Assembly: GCA_963724765.1 (NCBI GenBank)
Contig: CAVRVY010000001.1
Location: 448,001 to 512,000 of the forward strand
Direction of reading: 5' to 3'
From: an uncultured delta proteobacterium
GTDB lineage: Bacteria; Desulfobacterota; Binatia; Binatales; Binataceae
DNA: 64,000 nucleotides
Each line of letters starts with the position of its first letter. The first letter of the stretch is position 1. A program made the translations under genes and the position numbers. Shown piece after piece: positions 10,143-25,404 of this stretch. The notes below the pieces were generated by a model, which did no database searches, was not told where the DNA came from, and saw only the letters and a list, made by a program, of their open reading frames with translations.

Positions 10143-10324
10143 GCGATCGCGGTAGTTCCAGTTACGCGGGATGTGGCGGTTCTGGTCACGAGCCGGCGCG
10201 CCGGCGTCTTTGCCCCCGCCAGCCCCTTTCTTTTTCATGAACATGCGGTAAGGGCTAGACCCTCGTACCACAGCGCAGACGTGGGCTATGCGTACCCAAA
10301 TCGGAGGGTCGGAAATTCCAGTTC
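10138..10324 (+). repeat. Degenerate copy of the tRNA-Lys upstream region, with a possible tRNA relic
   Basis: CTTAG..ATCGCGG(T/C)AGTTCCAGTTA(C/T)GCG and CGCCGGCGTCTTTGC match 11536-11594. AATCGGAGGGTC at 10299 resembles tRNA AATCAGAGGGTC. Confidence 0.55.
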
Positions 10325-10603
10325 TCACTCGATAAGGAGGAAGCAGATCGTGTCAAGGACTCTATCTATCGCTTCGATTCTTATACTGACACTGGTAATA
10401 CTTGGAAAATCGGAGACTTCCGTTCGAGCCGCTGTTGCGCCATCCTCTGCGAACGATGTTGTCTCGCGCCTTGTTCGACACGGTCTCCTTGCCCACACTT
10501 CCCACGTCCCTGGGCATGCCTTCCGCGCCCGGGCATCGGCTCTGTGTCAGGCGCTGCTTCGGCAGTCATCCGAACGCCGATTAGCTTTTCGTAAAACGCC
10601 GAT

Positions 10604-10909
10604 TCAGCTCTTGCAGAACTTGCCGAAAAGACTGCCGCCGTCGAGGCATCCATCGGCATCGAGGTTGAACACTTCCTGCTGCCCATTGACGATGAGGAGC
10701 ACCTGCTTGCCGTCGATCTTGTAACTGCCTCGCACCGTCTGCTCCATCATGTAGAGGTTGACTGCGTCGCCCGACAAAAATTCGAGCTTCTGCATGACCA
10801 GGCCGTTGCCCATCCCGCCGCCTTTCGGGAGATAGGTTCCGCTGAGGCTGTTGTGACTACAACCGGATGCGAAAAGACACAGCAGCGCGGCAAATATGAT
10901 CGATTTCAT
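10604..10909 (-). CDS. Small lipoprotein, unknown function
   Basis: Signal peptide with lipobox-like ASGC; AGGGGA RBS. Confidence 0.7.
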   Translation of the reverse strand: MKSIIFAALLCLFASGCSHNSLSGTYLPKGGGMGNGLVMQKLEFLSGDAVNLYMMEQTVRGSYKIDGKQVLLIVNGQQEVFNLDADGCLDGGSLFGKFCKS

Positions 10910-11100
10910 GGATATCCCCTTGACTTCGGCGGCTGATGCCGCAACCTTTGGTCAAATCGCGCAGTCATAGAAGCGTAGCGCCCGAGTTCATGTCAAGCGC
11001 ACTAATCCGCTTCGAGTCAAATTTGCTTGCCGCCCGTTCTTGCCTTGGCCGTTAGTCATGCGCTAGTTGTGCGATCCCAACGGCGTATGGAGAGAGCCTC

Positions 11101-11427
11101 ATGATTTATGAGTTACGCGTATATCATTGCGTTCCCGGCCGGCTTCCGGCCTTAATCAAGCGTTTCGAATCCGTCACCATGCGGCTGTTCGAGAAGCATG
11201 GCTTCCACCAGACGGGCTTCTGGACGGTCGCGATCGGAGAATCGAACCAGGATTTGATCTATATACTGCAATGGGAATCGCTCGCGGATCGCGAAAAGAG
11301 GTTCGCGGCCTTTCAGGCTGACCCTGAATGGATCGAGGCGCGCCGCAAGAGTGAAGAGGACGGTCCGCTGGTCGCGTCGATCAGCAACACCATCATGACG
11401 CCGACCGCATTCTCGGCGGCGCGATGA
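11101..11427 (+). CDS. NIPSNAP family protein
   Basis: MIYELRVY..PGR, GFW, F.ADPEW and PT.FS pattern. Confidence 0.9.
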   Translation: MIYELRVYHCVPGRLPALIKRFESVTMRLFEKHGFHQTGFWTVAIGESNQDLIYILQWESLADREKRFAAFQADPEWIEARRKSEEDGPLVASISNTIMTPTAFSAAR

Positions 11428-11577
11428 GGCCCTCGAGCCGAAATTGGACGCCCAGCCGCTGTACCCCGCGTTGGTGAGTACGACCAGCACTCCGCTTCAT
11501 CGGCGCGCCAGTTTTTTTATGACAAGAGAAACGGGCTTAGCGAATCGCGGCAGTTCCAGTTATGCGCCGCCGGCGTC

Positions 11578-11606
11578 TTTGCGCCCGATGCCAGTTCGCG
11601 TAGACT
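11578..11606 (+). promoter_or_regulatory. Putative sigma70 promoter of tRNA-Lys
   Basis: TTTGCG-N17-TAGACT, 11 nt before the tRNA. Confidence 0.45.
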
Positions 11607-11617
11607 CCTGTGCGCAC

Positions 11618-11694
11618 GAGCCGTTAGCTCAGGCCGGTAGAGCATCTGACTTTTAATCAGAGGGTCCCGGGTTCGAGTCCCGGACGGCTCACCA
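11618..11694 (+). tRNA. tRNA-Lys (anticodon TTT)
   Basis: Acceptor GAGCCGT/ACGGCTC, anticodon arm TCTGA-CTTTTAA-TCAGA, T arm CCGGG-TTCGAGT-CCCGG, encoded CCA. Confidence 0.97.
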
Positions 11695-11707
11695 CCTAAC
11701 CCTAAGA

Positions 11708-11782
11708 AATCAAAGAGTTTTTCGAGCGTACTGGGCCGAGTCGGCAAACGCCTGCAAGCTGTTAGGGCACAATTAGGGCACA
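11708..11782 (+). promoter_or_regulatory. att-arm-like region: IHF-like site plus tandem integrase arm-type repeats
   Basis: AATCAAAGAGTTT (near WATCAANNNNTTR) at 11708; TTAGGGCACA at 11762-11771 and 11773-11782. Confidence 0.55.
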
Positions 11783-11796
11783 GCTGACCGCCGGAA

Positions 11797-11848
11797 ACGA
11801 CTGGAGCGGCTTGGATGGTTTGATCGAAGTTTAGGTATGGTTTGATCT
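11797..11848 (+). repeat. TSD plus element end with two tandem putative transposase-binding sites (R-like end)
   Basis: ACGAC|TGGAGCGGCTT GGATGGTTTGATC; ATGGTTTGATC at 11815 and 11837 (22-bp period). Confidence 0.85.
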
Positions 11849-11949
11849 GCCGCTTAAGGGGCGAAAACGGCCTCATTATGACCCTTGGAAACGACCCTCA
11901 AGGCCGCCAGCAGGAGGTCGCGAACTATAAGTGCAGCTTATCGAGTAAC

Positions 11950-12804
11950 TCATTGCGCCTTCAACTCATCAAGACGAGTCGGATTTTTCGCGGCCGCCGG
12001 CGCGATCCGCTCGACGGCGCGCGCGATCTCCGGCGCGGCGCTAGCCAGCTTCTCGGCCAAGGACTGTTCGGCCGCGTACTTGATGCCCGCGATACCTGGG
12101 TTATTCGCGAAGCCCGGATCGATGCCGACAGGGATTTCCGAAACAGCGCCAGTGCGCGGATTCTCATAGCTATAGGTTGGCGACGCCGGCGCGGCCGCGC
12201 GGAGCTGGTAGCCGTCGCGGTCGAGGTCCTTCTCGCCCAGCGAATCCGCATAGCACTTGCAATTCCATCCGTTCGGCGGATAGTGCGTGTCCCACCAGGG
12301 ATCGTTGGCGCGCAATACCGTGCCGCTCCAGTCCAGATGCTCCGGGCGCGGATGCGGGTCGGGATCGACATAACGCAGGTACGGCAGGATCTGTTTCGTG
12401 CGCTGCACCTGCGCCCATGAGCCGGCCGAGAGCGACGTGCGCAGATTGGTATCGTAGATCGTCTGCAGCCGGCGCACCGAACCGAGCTGGACCTCGCGCA
12501 CCTTGCCGGTGAGCGGGTCTTTCATCATCTGCCGTCCCCACCATCCCTTCGCGCGCAGAACGGGCTCGAGCGCATCGCGGAACTCCTCGAACGGGATACC
12601 CTCGGCGATCGCTTTGTCGACGGCGCCGCGGATGTCCTCGAGCAGGTCGACTGTCATCGCCTTTGCGACAGTGAAAGCGCGCGCGTGCTCGTCCTGCCAC
12701 ACGTCGCGCCAATCGAATCCGATCTTGAAGCCCTTGCGGCGGAAGAACTCGATCGCGTCTTCCGGCGGCAGCGCCGCGAACTCGAAGTCTCCGGCCGACG
12801 TCAT
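11950..12804 (-). CDS. Phage head morphogenesis protein (Mu gpF/gp30, SPP1 gp7 family)
   Basis: EAIEFFRRK..FDW, AFTVAK, RLQTIYDTN, RPEH and WWDTHYPPNGWNCKC patterns. Confidence 0.92.
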   Translation of the reverse strand: MTSAGDFEFAALPPEDAIEFFRRKGFKIGFDWRDVWQDEHARAFTVAKAMTVDLLEDIRGAVDKAIAEGIPFEEFRDALEPVLRAKGWWGRQMMKDPLTGKVREVQLGSVRRLQTIYDTNLRTSLSAGSWAQVQRTKQILPYLRYVDPDPHPRPEHLDWSGTVLRANDPWWDTHYPPNGWNCKCYADSLGEKDLDRDGYQLRAAAPASPTYSYENPRTGAVSEIPVGIDPGFANNPGIAGIKYAAEQSLAEKLASAAPEIARAVERIAPAAAKNPTRLDELKAQ

Positions 12805-13196
12805 GCGAGCACCTTCGCCGGGTCGATCGGAATCAGTAGGCAAATGTAATCGGGGTCGCCGACTAACCCGGCTCGGCTCGGATGAGGATCGTGAACGAGT
12901 CGCCCCTTGCGATAGACGACCGAGTGCTTCACCCCGCGCGGGCTATCGCCATGCGCCAGGTATAGGCAGTCGGGTTCGAGCACGAGCGATTCGCGCTGAA
13001 TCTCCAGCACCACGAATCCGCGACCGCGCAGGTATCGATAGAACATGCCCCAGAAACCGATTTCTTCGGGCGCCTCCTGGAAGTTTGGGACATCCTCGAG
13101 CTCAAGCTCTAGAATGCTGGCGACAGTCGCTTGCAGGCAGTTCCCTCTCGTGCCGGCGTCCTTGTCGTAGAAGCGATTCTGATCGACCGGCTTCAC
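12801..13196 (-). CDS. Phage hypothetical protein with C39-peptidase-like motifs
   Basis: GTG start after GGAGGAGG; Q..GNC.QA.VAS, HSVV and HDP; coupled to both neighbours. Confidence 0.7.
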   Translation of the reverse strand: MKPVDQNRFYDKDAGTRGNCLQATVASILELELEDVPNFQEAPEEIGFWGMFYRYLRGRGFVVLEIQRESLVLEPDCLYLAHGDSPRGVKHSVVYRKGRLVHDPHPSRAGLVGDPDYICLLIPIDPAKVLA

Positions 13197-14130
13197 TTCC
13201 TCCTCCGCTTGGCGATCGTCTTTCCCGGCACGCCGACCTGGCCGGCCACGTTGGCGTTGAAACACGCGTGCGCGAGCAGGTCCACCATTTTCGACAAGTT
13301 CATCTCCGGGACCGCCGCGACCGCTATCTCGAGCAGCTCCGGGTAGCTCGTCGCCGCGCGCATCTTCGTGAGCCACGGCCAGATGATCGGCGCCATCGCC
13401 TCATCCGAGTACTCGTCGCGCAGCTTCTCGACGAAGCGGTCGATCGCGTCCTGTCCCTTGCGCGCCGGCCGTGCTGCGTGGGCCGAGCGATTCGAGGCGT
13501 CATTCAAATCTCCGTCGACGTCGGTGAACGCACCGGCAAGACCCGGAGCGCCGATCGCCGTCGACGGCTCGGGACTTGGCGCCGGGGCTGGCGGCTTGGG
13601 TGCGTCGGTGCCCGCGATCTTCTCCACTGGATGCAGCATCGGCCGTGTATCGTCCGGGTCGGGTAACCCGAACTTATCCAGGATGGTCTTTTCGTTGACG
13701 CGCATCCCGCGATCGATGAACGTCTGCACCGACTCGGAGAAAAGTTTCAGGTCTTCCTTTTCAGGGTAGCCCAGCACGATCCGCGGATAGCGGCGCTTCG
13801 GTCCGATATTCAGATCGACAATCGGTTTTATCAGGTCGCGATTGAGCGCACCGCTCAGGCGGCGCGCATCGTCCTGGCTGAGGTCGCGGCGCACCGCATC
13901 ATGTACTTCGGCCGCCGCGCGCGAGCCGCTGCCGCGCGGAAGCTGCGTAGTCAGCGTCTGTCCCAGCACGCCGATACTCAGTTGCTTGTCGACGTACTCG
14001 CAGAATTGCTCGTACAGCTTCTCGCTCGCCGTGGTCTGCTTGTTCTCGATGAACTCGATCATCATCGAGTCCGGAATGATACACGCGGCGTCCGTGCCGA
14101 TATTGGTTACCGCGCGCAGCAGCGAGGACC
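13193..14130 (-). pseudogene. 5'-truncated Mu gp29-like portal protein (DUF935)
   Basis: LLRAVTNIGTDAACIIP..IEF, VLGQTLT and GSRAAAEVHDAVRRD motifs. Similarity stops near 14130 and the N-terminal part is absent. Confidence 0.85.
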
Positions 14131-14161
14131 TGCGCTGGGGTCGCATCGGATAATTGGGGTT

Positions 14162-14377
14162 ATGGCTACTCAGACCCAAAGGAACTGGACCGCGCATATC
14201 GTGGTTAGTTCCGAGCACGCTGGTCTGCGGCCGCATTTCAAGCGGCTTGAGGCCGAGCTGCTTCACGCGCTCGCGCGCATCGATGATCCTCGGATGGTCG
14301 CGAAATATCTAGACTCGCTTGTGACCACCAGCCGCGTATGGGTGAAAGCGCGCGAGGTCTACGCTTCGCGAAGGTGA
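14162..14377 (+). CDS. Phage hypothetical protein
   Basis: 71-aa ORF (MATQTQ...) heading a tightly packed + strand run. Confidence 0.5.
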   Translation: MATQTQRNWTAHIVVSSEHAGLRPHFKRLEAELLHALARIDDPRMVAKYLDSLVTTSRVWVKAREVYASRR

Positions 14378-14381
14378 GGTG

Positions 14382-14465
14382 ATGGAGCTGCCGGTCTTGA
14401 TCGCTATTGGTCTGGCGCTTGGCACTGTCGCGTTCTACATCGATCAGTATCTGCGCAAGAAGTGA
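14382..14465 (+). CDS. Small single-TM peptide (27 aa)
   Basis: GAGGT RBS; MELPVLIAIGLALGTVAFYIDQYLRKK; fills the gap between neighbours. Confidence 0.45.
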   Translation: MELPVLIAIGLALGTVAFYIDQYLRKK

Positions 14466-14469
14466 GTTT

Positions 14470-14637
14470 ATGGAAGCGAGCTACGCAGCGGCCGAAATCT
14501 GGCGCCTCCATCGCGAGGGCCAGGACGTGGTGATCGAGGTGCACTCGCGCGAGCTCGACCGCTGGATCGAGCTCAAGCTGACCCGCGCCCAGGCGCTCAC
14601 CTTCGTGGTGGAGTTCGCGCGGGTCACTCGCGACTAA
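14470..14637 (+). CDS. Phage hypothetical protein
   Basis: 55-aa ORF, packed in operon. Confidence 0.5.
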   Translation: MEASYAAAEIWRLHREGQDVVIEVHSRELDRWIELKLTRAQALTFVVEFARVTRD

Positions 14638-14819
14638 AGGAAATTCGGTCGCCATGCAATCCCCGAAATATATTCCAGTGTTCACGATTCGATTGCCGCT
14701 GGCGGGCCAGAGCCTGGCCTTCATGGGCGACGCGCAGATCGGAGTCGATGGCCGCGTGCCGCGCGAGCTCATGATTAAGATGCTCGAGCACGCGGTGTCG
14801 GTGCTCAAGGGCAGAACTG

Positions 14820-15053
14820 ATGCTCGGTGCAGTCGACAAAGGATGCATCGTCTGCGGCGTGCGCGCGATGGTGCTCTGCCCCTCCTGCGAATCCGACTAT
14901 CAGAAATATCTCGCCGGCCGGAAACCGCGCGAAGGCACGCGCGCCGGCATGAGCAGCCAGCCGGTGAAATCTGGGCATCCCGCCAAGCCCTGGTCGCGCT
15001 TTCAATGGGCCGCTTTTCAGCGCACCCGCCGCGAACGAGGAGGCCGCAACTGA
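14820..15053 (+). CDS. Small phage Zn-finger-like protein
   Basis: CIVC...CPSC. Overlaps ORF 14654-15070, whose 5' part may also be coding. Confidence 0.45.
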   Translation: MLGAVDKGCIVCGVRAMVLCPSCESDYQKYLAGRKPREGTRAGMSSQPVKSGHPAKPWSRFQWAAFQRTRRERGGRN

Positions 15054-15054
15054 G

Positions 15055-15453
15055 ATGGCTGCGAGACTAATCGGCTTACGGGAGCGCCTGAAGAAATCCC
15101 TTGAAGGTCATCGCGTGGACCAAATTGCTGAAGAGCTGAAGCTTACTCCTTCAGCCGTATACGGTTGGCTGGAGGGGATGCGTGAGCCACGCTTGGAAGC
15201 ATTGAGCCGATTCGCGCTGGCTACTGGAGTTACCTTTGGATGGCTGGTGACCGGTGAGCGCCCGATGACTGGCTCAATTCCAATTCCAATGCTGCTCTGG
15301 TGCCCGCAGTGCCACGAACGCCATATCGACGCCGGCGAATTTGCGCACAAGTCCCATCACACACATGCCTGTCAATTCTGCGGCCACGTCTGGCGACCAG
15401 CGCTCGTTGAAACCGTTGGCGTTCAGTTTTTGCCGGGGTTCAAAGACGAATGA
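15055..15453 (+). CDS. XRE-type HTH protein fused to Zn-ribbon domain
   Basis: IAEELKLTPSAVYGWLEG.REP...WLVTG followed by CPQC..HID..HACQFCGHVW. Confidence 0.75.
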   Translation: MAARLIGLRERLKKSLEGHRVDQIAEELKLTPSAVYGWLEGMREPRLEALSRFALATGVTFGWLVTGERPMTGSIPIPMLLWCPQCHERHIDAGEFAHKSHHTHACQFCGHVWRPALVETVGVQFLPGFKDE

Positions 15454-15540
15454 CAGCGAAACTCCAGATCGCATCCGACCTCGCGCTGGAGAGGCAAAAT
15501 GAACTGGCACAACAGTACTTTAGGCACATTCGGCGGAAAT

Positions 15541-16008
15541 ATGAACGCCAATAGCCAAATCGATTCGGCGATCGCGCGGCGCGAGCGGATCAAAGCGATC
15601 CACGTGCTGAAAAAGCAGCTCGGACTCGACGATGAGACCTATCGCCTGATGCTGCGCAAGATAACCGGCAAGGATTCGTCCGCTGCAATGAACTCCGGAG
15701 AGCATCGCGGCGTGCTCGACGAGATGCGCCGGCTGCTGAACGGCCATGCGTGGCCGTCCGCCCGCGTGCGGCCGCCCGGCGACGCTGCGGCGACGCCTGG
15801 CGCGGGGCAGCTCGCCAAGATTCGCGCGCTCTGGGCCGATCTGCGCGAGGCCGGCGCGCTGAAAGACGGCTCGGACCGAGGGCTCAGGCAATTCGTGCGC
15901 CGGGTCACCGGCCGCGACGCGATCGAATGGCTTTCGGCGGCCGACGCCAACAAGGTGATCGAAGGGCTCAAGTCGTGGCTGGCGCGGACTCGCGCGCCGG
16001 CCGCGTGA
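15541..16008 (+). CDS. gemA: Mu GemA/gp16-like protein (DUF1018)
   Basis: IHV.KKQLGLDDETYR.ML..TGKDS, KIRALW and KVIEGLK.W patterns. Confidence 0.88.
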   Translation: MNANSQIDSAIARRERIKAIHVLKKQLGLDDETYRLMLRKITGKDSSAAMNSGEHRGVLDEMRRLLNGHAWPSARVRPPGDAAATPGAGQLAKIRALWADLREAGALKDGSDRGLRQFVRRVTGRDAIEWLSAADANKVIEGLKSWLARTRAPAA

Positions 16009-16059
16009 ATCGATACGCGGCGGATGTGGACGTGGCAAGGGGCGGGGGGAAAACCGTGG

Positions 16060-16392
16060 ATGTCGACATTCGACAGGCTGGTTGACGCGATCGGCCGCGC
16101 GGCGGCCGAAAAACTGGTCGAAGAATTTGGCGGACGGAGGATTTACGTGCCGGTGACGGCGGCGCCTGAATCGCCGATCGCGATGGCTATCGGAATTGCC
16201 GCGGCGCGTACTCTTTCGCGCATCTTTGGCAGCGAAAGACTCGACGTGCCGGCGAGAATGGGAGCCCTTCGCGAGCGTATCCTGCGCCTGCGCGACAACG
16301 GCAACGATGTTGATACTATTGCACGCGCCCTGCGATGTACCCGCCAGCGCGTTTACCAAATTCTGGGGAAAAATTTTACCCGTACAGAATAG
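16060..16392 (+). CDS. Mor/C-family phage transcription activator
   Basis: IG..AA.KLV.EFGG.RIYVP, a repeated unit, and C-terminal HTH (IARAL.CT.Q.VYQIL). Confidence 0.85.
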   Translation: MSTFDRLVDAIGRAAAEKLVEEFGGRRIYVPVTAAPESPIAMAIGIAAARTLSRIFGSERLDVPARMGALRERILRLRDNGNDVDTIARALRCTRQRVYQILGKNFTRTE

Positions 16393-16417
16393 GCGCTGCG
16401 ACGGCTACGCTGCCATC

Positions 16418-16936
16418 GTGGCTGTAATCTATCCAATTGGCTTTCAACGCGCTGTCGAGCGCGTGCTGCAGGACGAAGGAGGCTATTCATGCGTTCCTGG
16501 TGACCCGGGCGGCGAGACCAATTTCGGTATATCGAAACGGGCATATCCGAATCTCGATATCGCCAAGCTGACGCGGGACGAGACGATCGCGATCTACTGG
16601 CGCGACTGGTGGCATCGGTACGGCTTCGACCGCATCCAGAACGAAGCGATCGGCGCAAAGCTGTTCGACCTGGCGGTGGATATCGGTGCCGACCATGCGA
16701 TCAAATGTCTCCAGCGCGCGCTGCGCGCGTATGGCGTAGACGGGATCGTCGAGGATGGCATCCTCGGAACTGTGACGTTCAGCAAGACCAATAGCTGCAC
16801 AAATTGGATGGCCCTGCTGGTCGGCCTCAGATGCGAGGCGGCCGGCTATTACCGCACGCTCGCGCTCGAGCGCGGCCGGCGCAAGGATGGCGATCACGAA
16901 TTTCTCGAGGGATGGCTCAACCGGGCCTATGAGTAG
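16418..16936 (+). CDS. Endolysin, glycoside hydrolase family 108
   Basis: EGGY...DPGGETNFGI, LQRAL, DGILG and GWLNR. Start approximate. Confidence 0.9.
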   Translation: MAVIYPIGFQRAVERVLQDEGGYSCVPGDPGGETNFGISKRAYPNLDIAKLTRDETIAIYWRDWWHRYGFDRIQNEAIGAKLFDLAVDIGADHAIKCLQRALRAYGVDGIVEDGILGTVTFSKTNSCTNWMALLVGLRCEAAGYYRTLALERGRRKDGDHEFLEGWLNRAYE

Positions 16937-17237
16937 CGCCGCCATCCTCATCGTATTGCTCCTGCTGCTGCCATTGGCGGGATGCGCCGGAGTGCAGAAG
17001 AGAGACGCCGAGTATGCTTCGTGTCCCACGGGCAAAATCTGCGCATACGATATCCGAACCGGGAAGCATTGGTTTCAACGCGTCTTCAGCCAGCCGCATC
17101 GCGTGCTCGTGTATCGCGACGATAAGGGCGTTCTTCATCCGCCGATCGTTGAGGAGAGCCAGGGCGACATGCTGGAGGAAATGTCCGGACCGCTCAGCGG
17201 AATCGCCAGCCACGTCACGATTCCGGTCATACCGTAG
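16929..17237 (+). CDS. Phage lipoprotein in lysis cassette
   Basis: Signal peptide plus LAGC lipobox; overlaps the lysin stop. Confidence 0.65.
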   Translation: MSSAAILIVLLLLLPLAGCAGVQKRDAEYASCPTGKICAYDIRTGKHWFQRVFSQPHRVLVYRDDKGVLHPPIVEESQGDMLEEMSGPLSGIASHVTIPVIP

Positions 17238-17246
17238 GAAAAGCAA

Positions 17247-17549
17247 ATGGGCCCACTGAGTATCGATTGGCTATATCACCTGCTCGTGCCGCTGGCGATC
17301 GGATTCATCGCCGCCGTCTTCAACTGTATCGCGAAGAAACACGGCTTCTCGATGGATTGCGTATATGAGGGTGTCGGCTTCATGGGCGGCACGATGGGAC
17401 TTTGGTTGACGGCGCTGTTTCACACGCCGCCGGGCAAGGTGATGGTGCCGGCGGGCTCGGATGCGGCGGCGCAGGCGGCCAGGGATGCGCAGAGCGCGGC
17501 AAAAAAGGCGGCGGATGCGGGATCGAAGAATAGCGGCCTTAATTTTTAG
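17247..17549 (+). CDS. Membrane protein, putative holin or i-spanin
   Basis: Two hydrophobic segments and an Ala-rich tail; lies in the lysis region. Confidence 0.55.
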   Translation: MGPLSIDWLYHLLVPLAIGFIAAVFNCIAKKHGFSMDCVYEGVGFMGGTMGLWLTALFHTPPGKVMVPAGSDAAAQAARDAQSAAKKAADAGSKNSGLNF

Positions 17550-17850
17550 CGCGCTATGCGCCGGATGCTCGCCGTCGCTGGTCTCGCTCAAGGGGACGAT
17601 GCCGCAGCTCGCGCCGCCGGCGCAGCCGTGCGGCGAGTTCGCGTTCCCGGAGCCGGACGCGATGCCCAAGGTTCCGGTCATTCATGCCGTGCGATGCCCT
17701 GGCTATGCCGCATGTTTCGACGCGGCGAACGCCGCCATGTTGCATCGCAAGATCGGCGCGCTTATGGCCGACGACGTCTATATACGCAGTTTGTATGCGA
17801 ACGAGGTTGCGGCGTACCGCAACCAGATCGATAAGGAGACCCGTCAATGA
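17515..17850 (+). CDS. Lipoprotein, putative o-spanin
   Basis: MRDRRIAALIFSALCAGC lipobox; Pro/Cys-rich; overlaps the upstream membrane gene. Confidence 0.55.
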   Translation: MRDRRIAALIFSALCAGCSPSLVSLKGTMPQLAPPAQPCGEFAFPEPDAMPKVPVIHAVRCPGYAACFDAANAAMLHRKIGALMADDVYIRSLYANEVAAYRNQIDKETRQ

Positions 17851-18383
17851 GTTTACTTTCAGGTATCGAGTCAGTCGCAGGCGACGTGCTTTCGGGGATC
17901 GAGGCGCTGATTCCTGTGCAGATGAAATCCGATCTGGGCGGTTTCGCCAGCACCGCGATCGCCGCCATCAAGCATGACGCGGCGGGCCTCGGAGCCGACG
18001 TCGGAGCGCTCGCGAAAGAGGATTTCGCCGCGATCTGGGCTGCAATCAGGACGACCGCGAGCAACGTCGTATCCGACCCGGTGCTCGCAACAGATCTTTT
18101 CACCGGGCAGGTTTCCGCCGCGGTTGCCGAATTGGGCACCGACGCGGCCAAGTCGCTCGTCCCCGCGCTGAAGGTGGTCGGCAAGAACACGTTGACCACG
18201 CTGACGAGCATGGCGGTGACGACGGCCAAGGCGGCGGCGAGCCAGGTGGTTGCCGCGGCGGCGCCGGTTATCGCGGACGTCAATGCGGCCGCTGCGACTG
18301 CCGCTCCCGCGGCGGCAGCTCCGGCTGCAGTGGCGGCAGCACCAGCAGCGGCGCCCTCAGCCACTCCAGCGTCGACCAAGTAA
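17847..18383 (+). CDS. Ala-rich phage hypothetical protein
   Basis: AAGGAG RBS, ATGA overlap, low-complexity Ala/Pro tail. Confidence 0.65.
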   Translation: MSLLSGIESVAGDVLSGIEALIPVQMKSDLGGFASTAIAAIKHDAAGLGADVGALAKEDFAAIWAAIRTTASNVVSDPVLATDLFTGQVSAAVAELGTDAAKSLVPALKVVGKNTLTTLTSMAVTTAKAAASQVVAAAAPVIADVNAAAATAAPAAAAPAAVAAAPAAAPSATPASTK

Positions 18384-18392
18384 GCTGCCGGC

Positions 18393-18686
18393 GTGGACTG
18401 GTCGAGCATCGGCGTATTCGTCGCGGCGGCGCTGAGCTTCGCCGGGCTGAACCTCGGCGCTCTCAAGTGGCTGCTCGATCGCCATGATTCCGCGGCCAGC
18501 AAAACCGAGGATCAGATCGCCGAACTGATCAAGGGTATGTACGAGCTGAGAGCCAATCTACCGCTTGAATACGTCAGGCGCGAAGATTGGCTCCGGTTCG
18601 GCGCGACGTTGGACGCAAAAATGGATGCGATGCGCGCCGAGATGCGCGAGTGGATTGCGGAGTTGAAAAGGACCAGCAATGTCTGA
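18393..18686 (+). CDS. Mu gp25-like membrane protein
   Basis: N-terminal TM, LPLEYVRREDW; position before gp26/gp27. Confidence 0.7.
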   Translation: MDWSSIGVFVAAALSFAGLNLGALKWLLDRHDSAASKTEDQIAELIKGMYELRANLPLEYVRREDWLRFGATLDAKMDAMRAEMREWIAELKRTSNV

Positions 18687-18990
18687 CGCATTCGACCTCG
18701 AACAGAAGCAACGGGAAGCCGCGCGATGGCGCGTGCTGCGCGTGCTTGACGCAGGCCGTCCGATCGGCGTCAGCGATGCGATTATCTGGCGCGTGCTGAA
18801 CGATATCCAGATTCCCTTTTCGGTAAACCAGATCAGGCGCGAACTGACTTATCTGCGCGACCTTCGGCTGATCGAAATCGAGGAAATTGGATCTGACTGG
18901 ACCGCCAAGTTGACCGCGACCGGCGTGGACGTCGTCGAATATACAATCGCCGCGCCGCCCGGGATCGCGCGGCCGAAGAAATACTGGTAA
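18679..18990 (+). CDS. Mu gp26-like protein
   Basis: RWRVLRVL, RRELTYL, LTATGVDVVE and PGIARP patterns. Confidence 0.8.
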   Translation: MSDAFDLEQKQREAARWRVLRVLDAGRPIGVSDAIIWRVLNDIQIPFSVNQIRRELTYLRDLRLIEIEEIGSDWTAKLTATGVDVVEYTIAAPPGIARPKKYW

Positions 18991-18993
18991 GCC

Positions 18994-19524
18994 ATGCCGG
19001 CGCGCTCAAAAATCTCGCGCCTGCCGGAGGACATGCGCGGAAGGCTCAACGGGCGACTCATCGCGGGCGGATTCAGCGACTACAAGTCTCTCGCGCAGTG
19101 GCTGGCCGATGAGGGCTACGAGATCAGCCGATGCGCGGTGCAGCGCTATGGCGCGAAGCTTGAAGAGCGGCTCGAAGCGGTCAAGATCGCGACCGAACAG
19201 GCGCGCGCGATCGTCGAAGTCTCGCCCGACCGCGAAGGCGCGATGAGCGACGCGCTGATGCGCCTGGTGCAGGAGAAGTATATCGAGCTGCTCGTCGCGC
19301 TCGATACCGCCGACGTTGACGTGCTCAAGAAGATCGCGCATCCAGTGGCCAATATGGTGCGCGCGTCGGTTAATCAAAAGCGGCTGATGCAGCAGATGCG
19401 CGAGAAGCTTGCCGATCAGCTCAAGACCGCCGGCCAGAAAGTCGCCGAAGCTGCCAGCCAGGGCGGACTGTCTCCGGACGCCGAGAAAAAGATTCGCGAC
19501 GCGCTGCTGGATATTCGCGTATGA
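18994..19524 (+). CDS. Mu gp27-like terminase small subunit (DUF3486)
   Basis: SKISRLP, FSDY..LA.WL..GYEISR.AV.RYG and GLSPD patterns. Confidence 0.88.
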   Translation: MPARSKISRLPEDMRGRLNGRLIAGGFSDYKSLAQWLADEGYEISRCAVQRYGAKLEERLEAVKIATEQARAIVEVSPDREGAMSDALMRLVQEKYIELLVALDTADVDVLKKIAHPVANMVRASVNQKRLMQQMREKLADQLKTAGQKVAEAASQGGLSPDAEKKIRDALLDIRV

Positions 19525-19814
19525 GCAAGCTCGGGCCTTTCCTTCGCAAAGCTCAAGACCGATATCTGCACTTCTGTCCCGCCTGCGAAGAGGTGCATCC
19601 TATCGGACTGTCCTGGACCTTCGACGGCAATCTTGAAGCGCCCACCTTCGCCCCGAGCGTACGTCATACCATCTATCCGCTCAGTACCACGCCAGCGGCT
19701 CCGCGCATTTGTCACTACTTTATTCGTGCCGGGCGCATTGAGTTTTGCGGCGATTGTACGCATGAGTTCGCGGGCAAGATTGTACCGCTTGTGCCGCTAC
19801 CGGTGCCGCCATGA
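19521..19814 (+). CDS. Cys/His-rich protein (DUF6527-like)
   Basis: FCPAC..H, WTFDGN..PTFAPSV and CHYFI..G.IEFC.DCTH patterns. Confidence 0.75.
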   Translation: MSKLGPFLRKAQDRYLHFCPACEEVHPIGLSWTFDGNLEAPTFAPSVRHTIYPLSTTPAAPRICHYFIRAGRIEFCGDCTHEFAGKIVPLVPLPVPP

Positions 19815-21346
19815 GTGAACTGTCATCGGTGCTGCTGCCGTATCAGCGGAAGTGGATTGCCGACACCGCGCCGATCAAGGTCTACGAGAAATCCCGGCGT
19901 ATCGGTATCACCTGGAGCGAGGCGGCTGACTGCACGCTCACGGCGGCCGGGCGCGACGGGATGGATACCTGGTACATCGGCTATAACAGAGAGATGGCGC
20001 TCGAGTTCGTCGAGACGGCCGCCGGATGGGCGAAGCGGTTCAAGCGCGCCGCCGAAGCGATCGAGGAAGAAATAATTAAGGACGAGGATAAAGACATCCT
20101 CGCTTATCGGATTCGCTTTTCGTCCGGCCACAAGATCGTCGCGCTCAGCTCACGGCCGTCGAACCTGCGCGGCAAGCAGGGCCGCGCGGTGATCGACGAG
20201 GCGGCTTTCCATGAGGACTTGCCCGAGCTGCTCAAGGCAGCGCTCGCGTTTACGGTCTGGGGCGGCCGGGTGCATATCATCTCGACCCACAACGGCGCCG
20301 ACAACCCGTTCAATGAGCTGGTAACCGACATCCGCGCCGGCAGGAAGCCCTATTCGCTACATCGCACGACGCTCGACGATGCGCTCGGCGAGGGTCTCTA
20401 TCGCGCAATCTGCCGAGTGCTCAAAAGAGACTGGACCGGCGATGCGGAAAAAGAATGGCGCGCGCAGGTCTTCGCCGATTATGGCGACTACGCCGATGAG
20501 GAATTACTGTGCGTCCCGCGCGCCAGCTCGGGAGCCTTCCTGCCGTCGACGCTAATCGAAAGCCGAATGCGCGAAGAAATCCCGGTCGCTCGCTTCGACA
20601 TGACTGCGATGTCGATGACCTTTATTGAGCGCGGCCAGGACGCGTTGCGCCGGACGGCCGAGGACTGGTGCGAAGAGCATTTGAAACCGCTTTTAGGGCG
20701 GCTTAATACGGGCCTGATGAGCTGCTTCGGCGAGGACTTCGGGCGCTCGGGCGACCTCACCGTGATATGGACGTTGCAGATAGGCCAGGGGCTCATGCGA
20801 CGCACGCCGTTCGTGGTCGAGCTCCGCAACGTGCCCTTCAAGCAGCAGGAACAGGTCCTTTTCTACATCGCCGACCGGCTTCCGCGGTTCATTGCCGGGG
20901 CGATGGACGCTCGCGGCAATGGCCAGTACCTGGCTGAGCAGGCCGCGCTGCGTTATGGTTCGCGCGTCGAGCAGGTGATGCTCTCGACCGAGTGGTATCG
21001 CGACAATATGCCGCGCTATAAGGCCGCTTTCGAGGATGGCGGTATCGAGCTGCCGAAAGACGCCGACATCCTGGCGGATCATCGGGCGTTGGTGATGGAA
21101 CGCGGCGTGGCTAGGATTCCGGAGGGCCGGCGTGGCCGCGGTCACGATGGCGGCCAGCGGCACGGTGACTCGGCGATCGCCGGCGCTCTCGCCTTTTACG
21201 CCAGCACCCTCAACCCGGCGCAGTATGCCTACACGCCGGCGCCAGCGGCACGTCGTCGCGTCGATGAATCGGCGCCGGATGATGAAGAGCAGGGGCGTCG
21301 CGATCCATTCTGGCGTCGTCTGGGCGGTCGACTGCGTGCCAGCTGA
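19811..21346 (+). CDS. Terminase large subunit (Mu gp28-like)
   Basis: LLPYQ, EKSRRIGITW, VIDEAAF, DFGRSGDL, DARGNG and HGDSA motifs. Confidence 0.95.
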   Translation: MSELSSVLLPYQRKWIADTAPIKVYEKSRRIGITWSEAADCTLTAAGRDGMDTWYIGYNREMALEFVETAAGWAKRFKRAAEAIEEEIIKDEDKDILAYRIRFSSGHKIVALSSRPSNLRGKQGRAVIDEAAFHEDLPELLKAALAFTVWGGRVHIISTHNGADNPFNELVTDIRAGRKPYSLHRTTLDDALGEGLYRAICRVLKRDWTGDAEKEWRAQVFADYGDYADEELLCVPRASSGAFLPSTLIESRMREEIPVARFDMTAMSMTFIERGQDALRRTAEDWCEEHLKPLLGRLNTGLMSCFGEDFGRSGDLTVIWTLQIGQGLMRRTPFVVELRNVPFKQQEQVLFYIADRLPRFIAGAMDARGNGQYLAEQAALRYGSRVEQVMLSTEWYRDNMPRYKAAFEDGGIELPKDADILADHRALVMERGVARIPEGRRGRGHDGGQRHGDSAIAGALAFYASTLNPAQYAYTPAPAARRRVDESAPDDEEQGRRDPFWRRLGGRLRAS

Positions 21347-21415
21347 TGCCCGGCGAGGTGAGAGTATTTGCCACATCCGAAGCGGCGTCGGCCCGCGAAC
21401 CTAATTGAATCTCCG

Positions 21416-21781
21416 ATGTCGAAAAACAAGAAATCGAAACGCGGTAAGCTTTGGAAAGCGTCGCCGCTGCCTACAGATCAGCATCCACCGGCATGGCTGA
21501 ACGGCGACCTTCGAGGGCTAGATCCCGGCATCCGCAAAGCCGTCGAACGGCTCCAAGCCGAAGGGATCGAAACGTTCGAGTCCTGCGAAGGCGGCCCGGG
21601 GCACTCCTACCCAGAGCCGAGCGTCAGGTTTTACGGAACGCCCGAAGCGGGCTGGCGCGCTGTCGGTGTCTGCCTAGCCTACGGGCTGCCGATCCTGTTC
21701 CTGCGGCGCATCTGGTCCATACTGGACGGCAACGAGCCGAACGGACCGCATTGGGAAATCGTATTTAGAGCACGCAATTAG
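21416..21781 (+). CDS. Hypothetical protein with TYW3-like N-terminal motif
   Basis: LDPGIRKAVERL..GIETFESCEG. Start uncertain. Confidence 0.6.
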   Translation: MSKNKKSKRGKLWKASPLPTDQHPPAWLNGDLRGLDPGIRKAVERLQAEGIETFESCEGGPGHSYPEPSVRFYGTPEAGWRAVGVCLAYGLPILFLRRIWSILDGNEPNGPHWEIVFRARN

Positions 21782-21951
21782 CCCAGCTTGATGCACTCAT
21801 CGCAGCGCGGCTTGCCCCCGGTCGAGTTGCGAATGAGGTGTTGTGGCTTAATGCGCTTCCCATATGGGCAATCGTCGTGATCGTGGTAAACGTTCCGGTG
21901 GCTGGGCGGATACTCCATCGAGTTCGTATGATACGAGGCTACCTTGGCCAT
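21778..21951 (-). CDS. Small Cys/His-rich hypothetical protein (57 aa)
   Basis: GGAGG RBS; YH..VYHDHDDC..G..I..GGKPRCDEC. Confidence 0.65.
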   Translation of the reverse strand: MAKVASYHTNSMEYPPSHRNVYHDHDDCPYGKRIKPQHLIRNSTGGKPRCDECIKLG

Positions 21952-22026
21952 CGTTCGTGCCTCCTGGTAGAAGCGATTCTTATGACCTTGCCAGCGACAT
22001 TTCGAAGCGAAATCACCCATTTCTTG

Positions 22027-22349
22027 AGTTTCAAGTTAGTTTAAAGTTAGGAAATTGCGAAAATCACGTAACTATATAAATTATCAGCGATTTTTTGTAA
22101 CTTTAAACTCGATCAGGCAGTTGGGGATGGTTTGATCTTTAGTTTAAAGTTCGCCGGATTGACATCTGAATGCTTGCGTTAGCGACGGTAAGCGACGACG
22201 CAAAATTAAGGACCCTCCGCCCTCCTGAGCTCCCATTCGGTTGCCGAAAACCCTGAATAATCCTTTTGTTCGGCGCATAAAGGCGCGGCAAGGCTCGCCT
22301 CATCTCGGTTGCCCCGGAGAGATCAAACCATCCCGTTCCCCCCAACGAC
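22027..22349. repeat. Element end (L-like) with binding-site repeats and TSD
   Basis: GGGATGGTTTGATCT at 22124-22138 and inverted at 22320-22334. AGTTT(A/C)AAGTT at 22027, 22038, 22141 and inverted at 22099. CA at 22343-22344 followed by ACGAC. Confidence 0.85.
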
Positions 22350-22675
22350 GCTCAGACCAGCTTATCACCGCTCAGGCAGTCGAGATTCCGGCGGGAAGTT
22401 CCCGACCGCAGTCTCTTAATTCCGACAGCATTCGATTTTGAGCGGCGGGGCCGGGTGATTATCGCGATGGGGGTGTAGATAAATACTGGTACCACTCGGT
22501 ATCAATGCACTCACGCGACTGAAGGCCACCAAGCCCGCGTTCGCCAAGGCTTGATCCGTATCGAGCGCAACCAAGTGCGCGGGCTCATCGTATCTGTCAC
22601 CAAAGCACTGGACATCGTTCGGAACGCATCTGCCTGAGGCAATCAGGGCGGCGCTCGGCCAAGGAAGACCCAGAA

Positions 22676-22954
22676 GTGGAATATCGTCTACCCTTTGGGG
22701 GTCTGGCGTTCTACGAAGACGCCCTGTTGGACCTTTTTCAGAAATACCCGCCGTCGTCTTCCCTGATCTCGGTCACGATTCACGAAGCCGGCAGGGGCGT
22801 GGGCACCTATACAGTCCATCACGCGTGGCCACCAGGCAGCTGGAGCGCTGCCGACATCGCCAAGTTTATCGCTCGCAAGATCTGGCAAGCGTATACAGCT
22901 CACGCCAGGCAGGCGTTTGATAGCGTGACGATCGAGTTTTCGACGTCCGGTTGA
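22676..22954 (+). CDS. Hypothetical protein
   Basis: 92-aa ORF with no motif recognised. Confidence 0.35.
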   Translation: MEYRLPFGGLAFYEDALLDLFQKYPPSSSLISVTIHEAGRGVGTYTVHHAWPPGSWSAADIAKFIARKIWQAYTAHARQAFDSVTIEFSTSG

Positions 22955-23373
22955 CCTTGGCGGCAGCGCGCAGCTTGCGCTCGGGGATCTTGCGCGCGCC
23001 TCCTCGACTACCAGCTTCGACCGGCGTTGCACCCTCGGCCACCATCGCCCGCTGATCGTCGCTCAAGTTGCGGGGCCGAGTTGGTTCTCTTCGATCCCCA
23101 GCTTGGCGAGCAGGGCCTTGCGCGCGAACTCGCGTCAGGCTTCGTCTATGCCCAGCACCTCAGCCAGAGGGCGTGCTTCTCTGTACCGGCCCAGCCGACC
23201 AGCAGGAGTGCAGCGGCGTCGGCTTTCGTGCCGCTTTAGGTCGGCGCTTTCGGGTCGATTGGCGAGGTGCGACACGGCTACATGCGGTGCATACTTGCCA
23301 CGATTGAAAGATGACCTCCCAGATTTAGGCGTTAATATGCGAGTTACTATTAGGAAATTTACAGGCTTTCGCG

Positions 23374-23389
23374 TGGCACGCGAATTGCT
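23374..23389 (+). promoter_or_regulatory. sigma54 (-24/-12) promoter of tadG-tadE
   Basis: TGGCACGCGAATTGCT matches TGGCACG-N4-TTGCW exactly, about 60 nt before the ATG. Confidence 0.75.
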
Positions 23390-23449
23390 GCGGCTGACGG
23401 TCGGAAATCCTTGTTCGCCGATTTCAGGGGAGGGTCATCCTTGGAGGGT

Positions 23450-24448
23450 ATGAAGATGATCAGCATCTGCCGCGGCCAGATAGCCGCTCTGTATGCCGTC
23501 ATACTTGTGACCCTGGTCGGCGCGATCGCTCTCGGTACCGATGTCGCAGCGATGTACGTTAACTGGCAGCACATGCAAAAGGTCGCGGATGCTGCTGCGT
23601 TGGCCGGCGCGAATTATCTCGCCGGATACACCTTTAGCGGCACAGCCGCCTCCGGTTGTGGTAGCGAGTCGGACGCAGCGAAAACAGCCGCCTGCACGTA
23701 TGCCTCTAACAATGGATTGGCCGCGGCCGGTCTTACCATCAACGAGCCGACCGCAACAACCATTCGTGTGGTGGCGCAAGAAACCGGTCTTCCCTACTAT
23801 TTCGGGAAGGTGCTCGGCCTCAACACGTATACTGTATCGGCAGGCGCCACCGCTACGGCAGGCGGGCCAATTGGTACCGTTACCCAAGGTCTGTTCCCGG
23901 TGGGACTTCAATGCACCGCCCCATGCAGTCTATCAAGTCTTGATCCAGGGCAATCCGTGTCGTTCGGCTCGAAGTTTGTCGGCGGTCTCGCGCCGGGTAA
24001 CTGGCAGTGGCTGGGTCTCGGGGGAGAAGGCGCTTCCACTCTGGGCAGCAACATCGAGTATGGTGCGACGAGCTCCTACACAATCGGCCAAACCATCAAC
24101 TCGTCACCTGGCAACAAAGGCAATTCGGGGCCTGTGAAGAGTGGTTTGGCGGCCAGGTTAAGCAGTTGCGAATCCATCTCTGATCCGTGCACCAGCGGTG
24201 GCGGGAACTCGAATAATATTCCGCCCGGCGATCCATGCCTGGTAGTCGTGCCGGCGGTTGACTATAGCGGGTGCACTGGGAACTGCACCTTGACGATCGA
24301 AGGGTTTGCCGAGATATACCTGGAGCCAGCCACCACCACCAGCACCAACATCAACGGATGTTTCGTGTCGGCAGTCGTCCCTAATACAATAGCATCTTCG
24401 TCGGCGCCGGCGCTGGGAGCATTGCAGGTACCCGTTCTGATCCAGTAG
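23450..24448 (+). CDS. TadG-like Flp pilus assembly protein
   Basis: RGQ plus TM, Q..ADAAALAGA, Cys-rich C-terminal domain with PGN..W; GGAGG RBS. Confidence 0.85.
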   Translation: MKMISICRGQIAALYAVILVTLVGAIALGTDVAAMYVNWQHMQKVADAAALAGANYLAGYTFSGTAASGCGSESDAAKTAACTYASNNGLAAAGLTINEPTATTIRVVAQETGLPYYFGKVLGLNTYTVSAGATATAGGPIGTVTQGLFPVGLQCTAPCSLSSLDPGQSVSFGSKFVGGLAPGNWQWLGLGGEGASTLGSNIEYGATSSYTIGQTINSSPGNKGNSGPVKSGLAARLSSCESISDPCTSGGGNSNNIPPGDPCLVVVPAVDYSGCTGNCTLTIEGFAEIYLEPATTTSTNINGCFVSAVVPNTIASSSAPALGALQVPVLIQ

Positions 24449-24460
24449 TGGGAAAGTTCT

Positions 24461-25000: not shown

Positions 25001-25331
25001 ATGGGAGAACGCGGACCCTGCGCGGCTATGAGGACCTGCTCGAGGCAGCGGCTCAGTCTGACACGCGAAGCCCTTTGACATCGCGTCGCGGACTATGAAG
25101 CAGGTCGGACAGCGCGCCTGGACGCGCCGGCGATTTTCGCTCGCCTCAAAGCCGCGCCTGCGCAGTGCGCCTACGCTCTTCGTTTCGACCACCAACCGCT
25201 CCTCGCTTTTACGTCGTTTACTTTCGAAAGTAATGGCCCACGACATCGACTTATGAGCACGATTGCGTTCGCGGACCTTGGCTCGACGCTTCATCTCGGT
25301 TCGCCATTCTCTCGACGGCCGCCAAGCGCAC

Positions 25332-25404
25332 GAGCCGTTAGCTCAGGCGGGTAGAGCATCTGTCTTTTAATCAGAGGGTCCTGATTCGAGTCCCGGACGG
25401 CTCA
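25332..25404 (+). pseudogene. Degenerate full-length copy of tRNA-Lys(TTT)
   Basis: Matches 11618-11691 plus the GCGCAC leader. Anticodon-stem A>T, disrupted T stem (CTGA for CCGGG), no CCA. Confidence 0.88.

Follow-up and report, generated by a model that had tools for sequence, protein, structure and literature searches.

The described transposable phages closest to the element analyzed here are Mu and D108. The element lies in a 64-kb stretch of the genome of an uncultured delta proteobacterium (contig CAVRVY010000001.1, positions 448,001 to 512,000; hereafter the window, whose first letter is position 1), and it shares with both phages TG..CA termini, a 5-bp target duplication, several repeats per end, and homologues of GemA, Mor, gp27, gp28 (the terminase large subunit, TerL), gp29 (portal), and gp30 (F). 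It differs from Mu in that its TerL is only ~46% identical, the portal/F arm is inverted, and TerL and F adjoin the two ends. As it has neither the transposase nor the virion module, we regard it as a derivative of a Mu-like transposable phage and not as a complete member of this group. It is probably, although we say so with modest confidence, an internally deleted, stranded, and decaying non-autonomous remnant of such a phage, now immobile.

Mini-Mu derivatives keep both ends and depend on A and B in trans; those made in the laboratory usually retain A/B or receive them, and they carry no terminase. The window element likewise keeps both ends and has no transposase; it differs in being natural and in carrying genes for terminase, MuF, and lysis. 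In Pseudomonas phage B3, the immunity/early region is reportedly inverted relative to that of Mu. The window element resembles B3 and other rearranged Mu-like phages in the inversion of a whole module, whereas its break falls between TerL and portal, within a packaging/head module that is normally contiguous; this split occurs in none of the 40 phage records listed out of 118. In an account of "grounded" (defective) prophages, these show large internal deletions and loss of mobility genes, with the ends and several intact genes kept (PMC6379469). By comparison, the transposon-type ends of the window element are still exact, and one of its terminal junctions is common to a diverged relative located elsewhere. 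Phage satellites (P4-like, PICI, cf-PICI, and PLE) have no capsid or tail genes, keep packaging-related genes, and depend on another element; unlike them, the window element has no recognized integrase, primase/replicase, or helper-sensing regulator, its portal is truncated, and its architecture is not conserved. Finally, MuF polymorphic toxins of temperate phages have been described (PMC5576092). The MuF homologue of a related genome, G127, is a fusion of MuF with an ADP-ribosyltransferase (ART), whereas the window MuF (297 aa) has no toxin domain.

As a defective Mu-like prophage, the element is ordinary and requires no new mechanism. Its value lies in revealing a Mu-like lineage whose packaging/head module is split, the halves pointing to opposite genome ends, and in defining an end motif (ATGGTTTGATC, 11 nt from the TG terminus) along with a candidate cognate transposase (on G109:C2), so that end recognition becomes directly testable. 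A limited literature search listed no paper on a natural transposase-less mini-Mu or on a satellite of a transposable phage; were the element mobilized in trans and helper dependent, it would be a first case of a transposable phage having given rise, in nature, to a satellite-like derivative.

The element spans positions 11802 to 22344 (10,543 bp), and its TG..CA termini both start with TGG when read inward. In what follows, labels beginning with G, C, and L denote genomes, contigs, and loci, respectively; the source genome is G000 (5.4 Mb in 4 contigs, 97% complete), and the order to which it belongs was surveyed through 165 genomes. The boundary features are as follows.

11797-11801, no strand, left copy of the target duplication, ACGAC
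11802-11849, plus strand, End1: terminus TGGAGCGG..., two tandem transposase-site-like repeats (ATGGTTTGATC at 11815 and 11837)
21967-22344, minus strand, End2 region: terminus ...CCCCCCA, AT-rich small repeats, terminal site at 22321-22331 (minus), internal site at 22127-22137 (plus)
22345-22349, no strand, right copy of the target duplication, ACGAC

At the left junction, the letters ...GGAAACGAC are followed by TGGAGCGGCTTGGATGGTTTGATC... (terminus at 11802, TGG), and at the right junction, ...GATCAAACCATCCCGTTCCCCCCA is followed by ACGACGCTC... (terminus at 22344, CCA). This is exactly what a previous sequence-only reading of the window had claimed, with ACGAC abutting TGG on one side and CCA on the other and a matching repeat inside both ends. 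The repeat, the 13-mer GGATGGTTTGATC, lies at 11813-11825 (plus) and 22321-22333 (minus), 11 nt from either terminus. With the termini fixed by TG/CA and by the equal offset, the chance of equal flanking 5-mers is 1/1024 by an arithmetic estimate. The core 11-mer ATGGTTTGATC has four exact copies in the window, every one within the element ends: two in tandem starting at 11815 and 11837 (22 nt apart), one terminal at 22321 (minus), and one at 22127 (plus) that is inverted relative to the terminal copy. About 0.03 exact copies would be expected by chance (arithmetic estimate); the weight rests on exact copies only, as the 16 ATGGTTTGATC-like sites found with up to 2 mismatches do not exceed shuffles. 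Genome-wide, GGATGGTTTGATC occurs four times, three times in the element and once on contig C4. The terminal and internal sites of End2 form perfect 15-nt inverted arms, 181 nt apart, and End2 is homologous to positions 7590-8008 of L028, a public 8.2-kb metagenome contig that is the closest relative of the plus-strand block, as well as to ends on G179:C286 and G178:C352 (the latter two unpublished). End1 would be the R-like end, by analogy with the Mor-proximal end of the G109:C2 element, which also has two tandem sites. The element thus has the TG..CA termini and the 5-bp duplication of the Mu-like class, and several predicted transposase-site repeats per end; Mu-type DDE insertion of an element without transposition and virion genes, as proposed earlier, is supported.

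The gene content was assigned by Pfam and PHROGs profile scans of the open reading frames (ORFs) of the element, with tblastn for selected proteins.

11950-12843, minus strand, MuF, a gp30-like head morphogenesis protein (Pfam Phage_Mu_F, 2.4e-16), apparently full length, 297 aa
13193-14266, minus strand, portal fragment, 3' half only (Pfam Portal_Mu, profile 180-336 of 336)
14267-15054, no strand, central scar between the arms, ~0.8 kb without a recognizable gene
15055-15453, plus strand, XRE-type helix-turn-helix (HTH) protein (Pfam HTH_3, 7.9e-07)
15499-16008, plus strand, GemA, Mu gp16-like (Pfam GemA, 3.9e-32)
16024-16392, plus strand, Mor, middle operon activator (Pfam Mor, 5.7e-09)
16196-16936, plus strand, GH108 endolysin with PG_binding_3 (Pfam)
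16887-17237, 17247-17549, 17556-17834, 17847-18383, 18393-18686, and 18679-18990, plus strand, six small packed ORFs
18994-19524, plus strand, Mu gp27-like, small terminase-like protein (Pfam Phage_Mu_Gp27, 2.2e-40)
19521-19814, plus strand, DUF6527 protein (the counterpart position in L028 holds a DNA methylase)
19811-21346, plus strand, TerL, full length, 511 aa (phrog_2, 3.1e-37)
21400-21966, no strand, 567-bp insert, 100% identical inverted copy of G000:C1:269823-270389 (L001 14824-15390)

Two arms diverge from the scar: portal and MuF run leftward to End1, and the genes from GemA to TerL, whose ORFs abut or overlap, run rightward to End2. The MuF and portal arm is therefore inverted relative to the GemA-to-TerL block, a feature overlooked by the sequence-only reading, which took the element as colinear with Mu. 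The gene list given there (GemA, Mor, GH108, gp27, terminase, portal 3' half, and gpF) is borne out by Pfam and PHROGs, as is, with tblastn in addition, the claimed absence of MuA, MuB, Ner, protease, capsid, and tail genes from the element; the gpF stop codon, said to lie about 150 bp from the end, is at 11950-11952, 148 nt from the terminus. Predicted Mu-type middle/late regulators and packaging genes are thus present (GemA, Mor, gp27, TerL, portal, and F), the portal as a half only, and the element gave no protease/scaffold, capsid, or tail match. MuF is 49% identical to the protein of Shewanella phage MuM16-2 and 71-74% identical to those of G127 and G169; it ends right after the MuF domain, without the C-terminal ART toxin domain of its relatives. 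Portal homology by tblastn covers ~13229-14182 and corresponds to aa 282-464 of the 471-aa portal encoded by a second, diverged Mu-like cluster on contig C2 of the same genome and to aa 316-632 of the 636-aa G127 portal; the nearest full-length portal in the protein collection has 583 aa and 73% identity. In and around the scar, the ORFs at 13901-14377, 14404-14808, 14407-14637, and 14654-15070 have no Pfam or PHROG match, and a very weak MuB-like stretch at 14599-14763 (plus) is not significant (E=0.084, tblastn with G109 proteins). The HTH protein weakly resembles c repressors of the Mu-like kind in their N-terminal region; its identity to the one of G109:C2 is 29% (E=1.6e-7). The true start of the endolysin is probably near 16391, judging from the comparison with L028. 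ORFs 18393-18686 and 18679-18990 match phrog_462 (lipoprotein) and phrog_436, and the six small ORFs are possible lysis accessory or gp25/26-like genes.

Neither the element nor its genome appears to encode MuA or MuB. The Pfam and PHROG scans found no rve, Mu-transpos_C, AAA+ MuB-like, or Ner family among the element ORFs. Mu-transpos_C has no match in G000, in a search that matches 29 of the 165 genomes of the order, and tblastn of the genome with A, B, and Ner of MuM16-2 or with A and B of G109:C2 returned nothing. The 16 rve matches of the genome all lie in frames of at most 361 aa, the size of those of insertion sequences (IS). Pfam HTH_Tnp_Mu_1 has no match in the genome either, but the control was also without any match. 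The MuA/MuB helper that the sequence-only reading had suggested seeking was therefore not found in the genome by Mu-transpos_C, tblastn, or inspection of rve frames. With no transposase in the element or the genome, the element cannot move or replicate now, and it cannot build particles.

Comparison with relatives indicates which of its junctions are old. Amino acid identities to L028 are 58% for GemA, 50% for Mor, 62% for the endolysin, 75% for ORF 18393-18686, 70% for ORF 18679-18990, 66% for gp27, and 82% for TerL over all residues (1-511). The seven shared genes have dN/dS ratios of 0.14-0.44 (TerL, 0.14) at dS 0.8-1.1, which indicates that they were long kept functional in a layout with TerL at the end. 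After the TerL stop, ~420 bp of L028 align with window positions 21347-21399 and 21967-22344, including the internal site ATGGTTTGATCTTT; the 567-bp insert is absent, and the terminus, ...GATCAGACCATCCCGCACATCCCA, has the same 11-nt offset as in the window. The 99 nt of L028 immediately past CCA match G000:C3:566650-566748 at 85% identity, a segment that forms the 3' end of a host protein gene. Since this flank matches G000:C3 and not the window site, L028 inserted independently, in a related host and at a different site, and the position of TerL next to End2, common to both, is a shared and older feature. A likeness between the L028 flank and the right flank of the window was dismissed as chance (local score of 19, against 17.5±2.2 for shuffles). 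Of the earlier suggestion of an in-place deletion derivative, the loss of transposition and virion genes stands, but the junction of TerL with the right end is not a private in-place deletion, being common to L028 at a different host site.

MuF homologues are found in 14 of the 165 genomes. On G127:C4, a C-terminal TerL fragment on the minus strand (aa 219-496, 74% identity) is abutted by a complete portal ORF of 636 aa, which lies on the plus strand, so that TerL and portal diverge as in the window; then come the MuF-ART fusion, a spacer of ~380 nt, and an End1-type terminus whose reverse complement begins with TGGAGCGG and contains two tandem sites, with tRNA-Leu(taa) 112 nt beyond. The MuF homologue of G127 (L083 15153-16865) has a MuF polymorphic-toxin architecture (Pfam ART, 4e-12; ADPrib_exo_Tox, 2e-8). 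The short-contig cases come from unpublished genomes alone (G178, G179, G137, and G180). On G179:C286, a fragment of the protease gene and a shortened MuF-ART lie on one strand and abut, on the opposite strand, a shortened GemA followed by Mor and an End2-type end; on G179:C490, MuF-ART is followed after ~440 nt by an End1-type terminus 56 nt from tRNA-Ser(gct); and on G178:C352, Mor is followed by an End2-type end 68 nt from tRNA-Ser(gct). The G179 copies align to the G127 MuF-ART over its toxin part. G169:C22 is a full Mu-like prophage of the order in which ner-A-B diverges from the late genes, and G155 has an orphan MuF. Orphan TerL genes, 70-72% identical to that of the window, are present in three genomes of one genus (L070, G156:C4; L071, G159:C22; L072, G158:C215); no other Mu-like gene was detected in the 4-12 kb examined on each side of them.

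The copies differ in content, in deletions, and in truncated genes (the window copy retains half a portal, G127 a piece of TerL, and G179 pieces of MuF and GemA), which favors decay over a conserved satellite design. The sequence-only reading had posed the right pair of alternatives, a deletion derivative and a helper-dependent element. A satellite as the favored one is not supported, in view of the differing contents and truncated genes of G127:C4, G109:C2, and the unpublished G178/G179 contigs and of the lack of a MuA/MuB helper in the genome.

In our favored scenario, MuA-type DDE transposition would have brought the element to its place 107 bp past a tRNA-Lys 3' end, as its termini, repeated sites, and 5-bp duplication suggest. 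To judge from the relatives, the parent would have had a portal/MuF/(protease-capsid-tail) arm running to the R-type End1 and an early-GemA-Mor-lysis-gp27-TerL arm running to End2. Two deletions would be simplest: one of the center, which would have removed the portal 5' half, the repressor, Ner, MuA, MuB, and other early genes and left the 0.8-kb scar, and one of all that lay beyond MuF, namely protease, capsid, and tail. Later, a chromosomal cassette of two genes would have been duplicated into the space between TerL and End2, adding 567 bp. Individual copies of the lineage would have lost different internal parts. The window copy could now be moved only if a related phage supplied a transposase recognizing ATGGTTTGATC-type ends. 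Since the 13 plus-strand genes and MuF are intact, the losses look recent. Other origins were considered and rejected. Autointegration or intramolecular transposition predicts that the outer face of an end abuts internal sequence, contrary to what is observed; End1 and End2 share only the repeats, which does not fit two R ends from inverted duplicate copies; and a site-specific invertible segment would be at odds with the lack of a recombinase gene and of long inverted repeats at the arm junctions.

Several points weigh against this scenario. Its main weakness is that the parental layout is inferred and not seen: no full-length member with divergent arms was found in the 165 genomes of the order, the GTDB species representatives, IMG/VR, or one metagenome scan. 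MuF peptide patterns reached a best match of 46% in the GTDB species representatives, and TerL patterns one of 63% in IMG/VR; the end pattern TGG-N8-GGATGGTTTGATC gave 20 matches in IMG/VR with no protein or DNA similarity to the element, which we attribute to chance. In all of the 40 records listed among the 118 phage records with a related TerL, this gene is mid-genome or points inward. MuF adjoins End1 at three loci (window, G127, and G179:C490), which is odd for independent random deletions, and the three MuF-End1 spacers do not align, so that a single origin of the junction is not demonstrable. Neither frameshifts nor stop codons interrupt the retained genes, and TerL and gp27 show purifying selection, as would equally be expected of a helper-dependent element. 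The deletions may predate or postdate the insertion, both orders fitting the data. No empty site and no full-length occupant of the insertion site was found in 40 relatives searched with window positions 9000-25500: matches on the left end at 11725, and those on the right begin at 23259, on other contigs. Synteny breaks at 23259 in the three relatives that have the right-hand genes, with different upstream content in each. Finally, 13 public runs from nine studies contain part of the stretch, and contigs of 4 runs from 4 studies were mapped on positions 10500-24000; among the pieces listed (281 others are unlisted), none crosses either terminus. Nor does any joint skip the whole element, which tells neither way.

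A transposition module of the type that the window element would have needed does exist in the order. A pattern search for two tandem sites gave 6 places in 5 of the 165 genomes, against none for the reversed-pattern control. G109:C2:380545-391811 (L110 8545-19811) is an 11.3-kb Mu-like element of early genes only, bounded by TGTAGCTTTGCAGATGGTTTGATC... and its near-perfect inverse, and it encodes a CI-type repressor (c), Ner, a 620-aa rve plus Mu-transpos_C transposase, a 260-aa AAA+ protein, several unknowns, and Mor, without lysis, head, or tail genes. Its Mor-proximal end has two tandem sites, like End1, and its repressor-proximal end has three direct sites. This element shows a predicted transposase family going with the ATGGTTTGATC-type end motif. 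The direct repeat on its two sides, GCGGGCTATTCGGCCAT, is unexpectedly 17 bp long and not 5 bp, and a solo second copy of its 46-nt end lies on G109:C1. The extra copy of GGATGGTTTGATC in the source genome, on contig C4, is a solo End1-like terminus 192 nt from tRNA-Leu(taa); the host genes on its right have homologues to the right of the G127 copy, and the two appear to occupy the same locus. This solo end (L005 to ~10042) has an 18-nt match to the End1 site and lies within a 13-kb stretch (G000:C4:1240937-1254041) that is bounded by a 22-nt direct repeat, CACCCGCACAAAACCCGCACAA, and contains an Eco57I-like methylase. A similar tandem motif is found ~118 nt outside the L028 end (local score of 38, against a shuffle maximum of 27).

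The existence of such a transposase bears on the first alternative, a possible though doubtful one, in which the element is a natural mini-Mu mobilized in trans. The center and the capsid and tail genes would already have been lost on arrival, a relative's transposase would have moved the element, and the helper would since have gone; packaging with flanking host DNA by headful packaging may possibly have come beforehand. Besides the presence in the order of a transposase with the same end motif, this account draws on the intact ends with four exact sites and a clean 5-bp duplication, on the intactness of all retained genes, on the TerL-End2 junction being older than the window insertion, and on several differently deleted relatives, some unpublished, that keep recognizable ends at different loci. 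Yet G000 holds a single copy, a second copy with the same internal junctions was not found anywhere searched, and a truncated portal ORF would not be expected to persist in a propagating element. The TerL-End2 junction, moreover, is silent on the timing of the deletions if it belongs to the natural parent layout. A broader version, which we consider rather improbable, is that the order hosts trans-mobilized natural mini-Mus with a preference for insertion just 3' of tRNA genes; the window copy, with its own terminase pair, MuF, lysis genes, and Mor, would be helper dependent and could use the C2-type cluster or a superinfecting relative for particles and the MuA/MuB of a relative for movement.

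The second Mu-like cluster of the source genome, at G000:C2 ~232400-287700 (loci L003, L004, and L114), is 43-68% identical in amino acids to the window genes. Its first part comprises a c-like repressor, a DnaA_C-type HTH protein, Mor, an endolysin, gp27, TerL, and the full 471-aa portal; 21 kb of host-like genes follow the portal, and then come protease, capsid, gp36, tail sheath, baseplate, and fibers. No MuA, MuB, or MuF was found in it. Protease, capsid, and tail homologues of the genome are on contig C2 only. A C2-type TerL (64-73% identical to that of the window) is present in 118 of the 165 genomes, mostly in one copy, and such clusters could represent either very widespread prophages or a domesticated cluster resembling a gene transfer agent (GTA).

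This cluster is the conceivable helper if the window element is instead a functional phage satellite that keeps Mor, the lysis genes, the terminase pair, and MuF to redirect helper capsids and tails, an option that we judge decidedly improbable. Purifying selection on TerL and gp27 in a layout with TerL at the end would fit it, as would gene sets that look complementary, the C2 cluster being without MuF and A/B, and the wide occurrence of C2-type TerL in the order. But the element and the genome offer no replication or transposition function, and the ORFs scanned yielded no match to an integrase, primase, or replicase family. The portal is half a gene, and the genome holds one copy only. No known satellite regulator, capsid-size gene, or interference gene was recognized, several ORFs being of unknown family, and the C2 cluster is itself split by 21 kb between portal and protease. 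Nor is there a fixed architecture, as contents and break points differ between independent copies and only the TerL-End2 junction is shared, with L028. As for a gene transfer agent, the window element is without head or tail genes.

The insertion site raises a separate question, for the window element and its relatives show a clear excess of insertions beside tRNA genes. Mu-type transposition is usually described as near-random, and such an excess is unexpected for it. In the window, the host gene concerned is the following.

11618-11694, plus strand, host tRNA-Lys(ttt) (ARAGORN), 3' end 107 nt outside End1, not part of the element

Five of ~9 independent end loci lie 56-192 nt from a tRNA 3' end, two of the five coming from unpublished genomes.

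Window End1 (11618-11801), tRNA-Lys, 107 nt
G127 and G000:C4 (L083 17246-17446; L005 9935-10212), tRNA-Leu, 112 and 192 nt, one locus in the count
G179:C490, tRNA-Ser(gct), 56 nt, unpublished
G178:C352, tRNA-Ser(gct), 68 nt, unpublished
G109:C1, tRNA-Ser(cga), 65 nt inside the second site

Coordinates of the further tRNA-adjacent ends are L090 4749-4896, L118 4380-4562, and L093 1490-1689. No tRNA is found in the available sequence at G109:C2, G051:C24, G178:C471 (unpublished), the End2 flank of G179:C286 (unpublished), or L028, which sits in a protein gene. A random position would lie that near a tRNA gene in well under 1% of cases, by estimate. Because the distance varies and both end types and both orientations occur, the excess looks like regional preference or survival bias and not like precise homing.

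The same counts would fit a Tn7-like target-directed element homing next to tRNA genes by a dedicated selector, and the ends of Tn7-like elements also have TG..CA termini, repeated sites, and 5-bp duplications. We nevertheless find this very unlikely. Every recognizable gene is a Mu-phage gene, and the element carries none of TnsA/B/C or a TniQ/TnsD selector; the G109:C2 module is c/ner/A(rve plus Mu-transpos_C)/B, with no TniQ/TnsD-like match among the 10 ORFs scanned. Site and orientation are not fixed, as the tRNA distances and end types show, and L028 inserted in a protein gene. A simpler explanation would be hotspots near hairpin-forming repeats, as reported for transposable Pseudomonas phages (PMC5977238).

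That the inverted left arm or the 567-bp repeat is a misjoin of the assembly is hardly credible: the repeat is indeed 100% identical to a second locus, and metagenome unitigs begin at 21370, 30 nt before it, but the unit as a whole has matched ends and sits within a matching 5-bp duplication, contigs of other studies agree exactly with the window over 21370-22182, 11912-12279, 14414-14937, and 14870-15253, the genome is in only 4 contigs, and the divergent arrangement recurs in G127. The contig covering 21370-22182 bridges the right edge of the insert. Many of the short metagenome contigs are identical to the window, flanks included, so the same organism was present in those samples. Some diverge from the window after 11999/12000 (runs X2 and X7) or at 21399 (run X4), a sign that other forms may exist at these two places, the 3' end of MuF and the left insert edge.

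The insert, which the sequence-only reading did not mention, makes up 567 of the 998 bp between TerL and End2. Its content is just two small genes in convergent orientation (121 aa and 57 aa, with no Pfam family), plus 16 nt upstream of each. Its counterpart on contig C1 adjoins a type IIG restriction-modification gene, an IS1595 transposase, and a PIN/DUF433 pair.

Around the element, the left flank carries cytochrome b/c, NIPSNAP, and tRNA-Lys genes, and the right flank TadE/TadG-like genes and a second tRNA-Lys gene. The adjacency of tRNA-Lys and the cytochrome b gene is conserved in relatives of the genus. Between tRNA-Lys and the insertion point, at window positions 11739-11790 and 18-39 nt outside End1, there is a tandem 11-nt repeat, TTAGGGCACAA/TTAGGGCACAG. 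The two tRNA-Lys(ttt) genes (11618-11694 and 25332-25405) are in direct orientation, match over 81 nt at 94% identity, and bracket 13.6 kb, made up of the element, 0.9 kb without homologues in relatives, and the TadE/TadG-like genes. In the genus relatives examined, the tRNA-Lys matches beside the cytochrome b gene fall on a single place.

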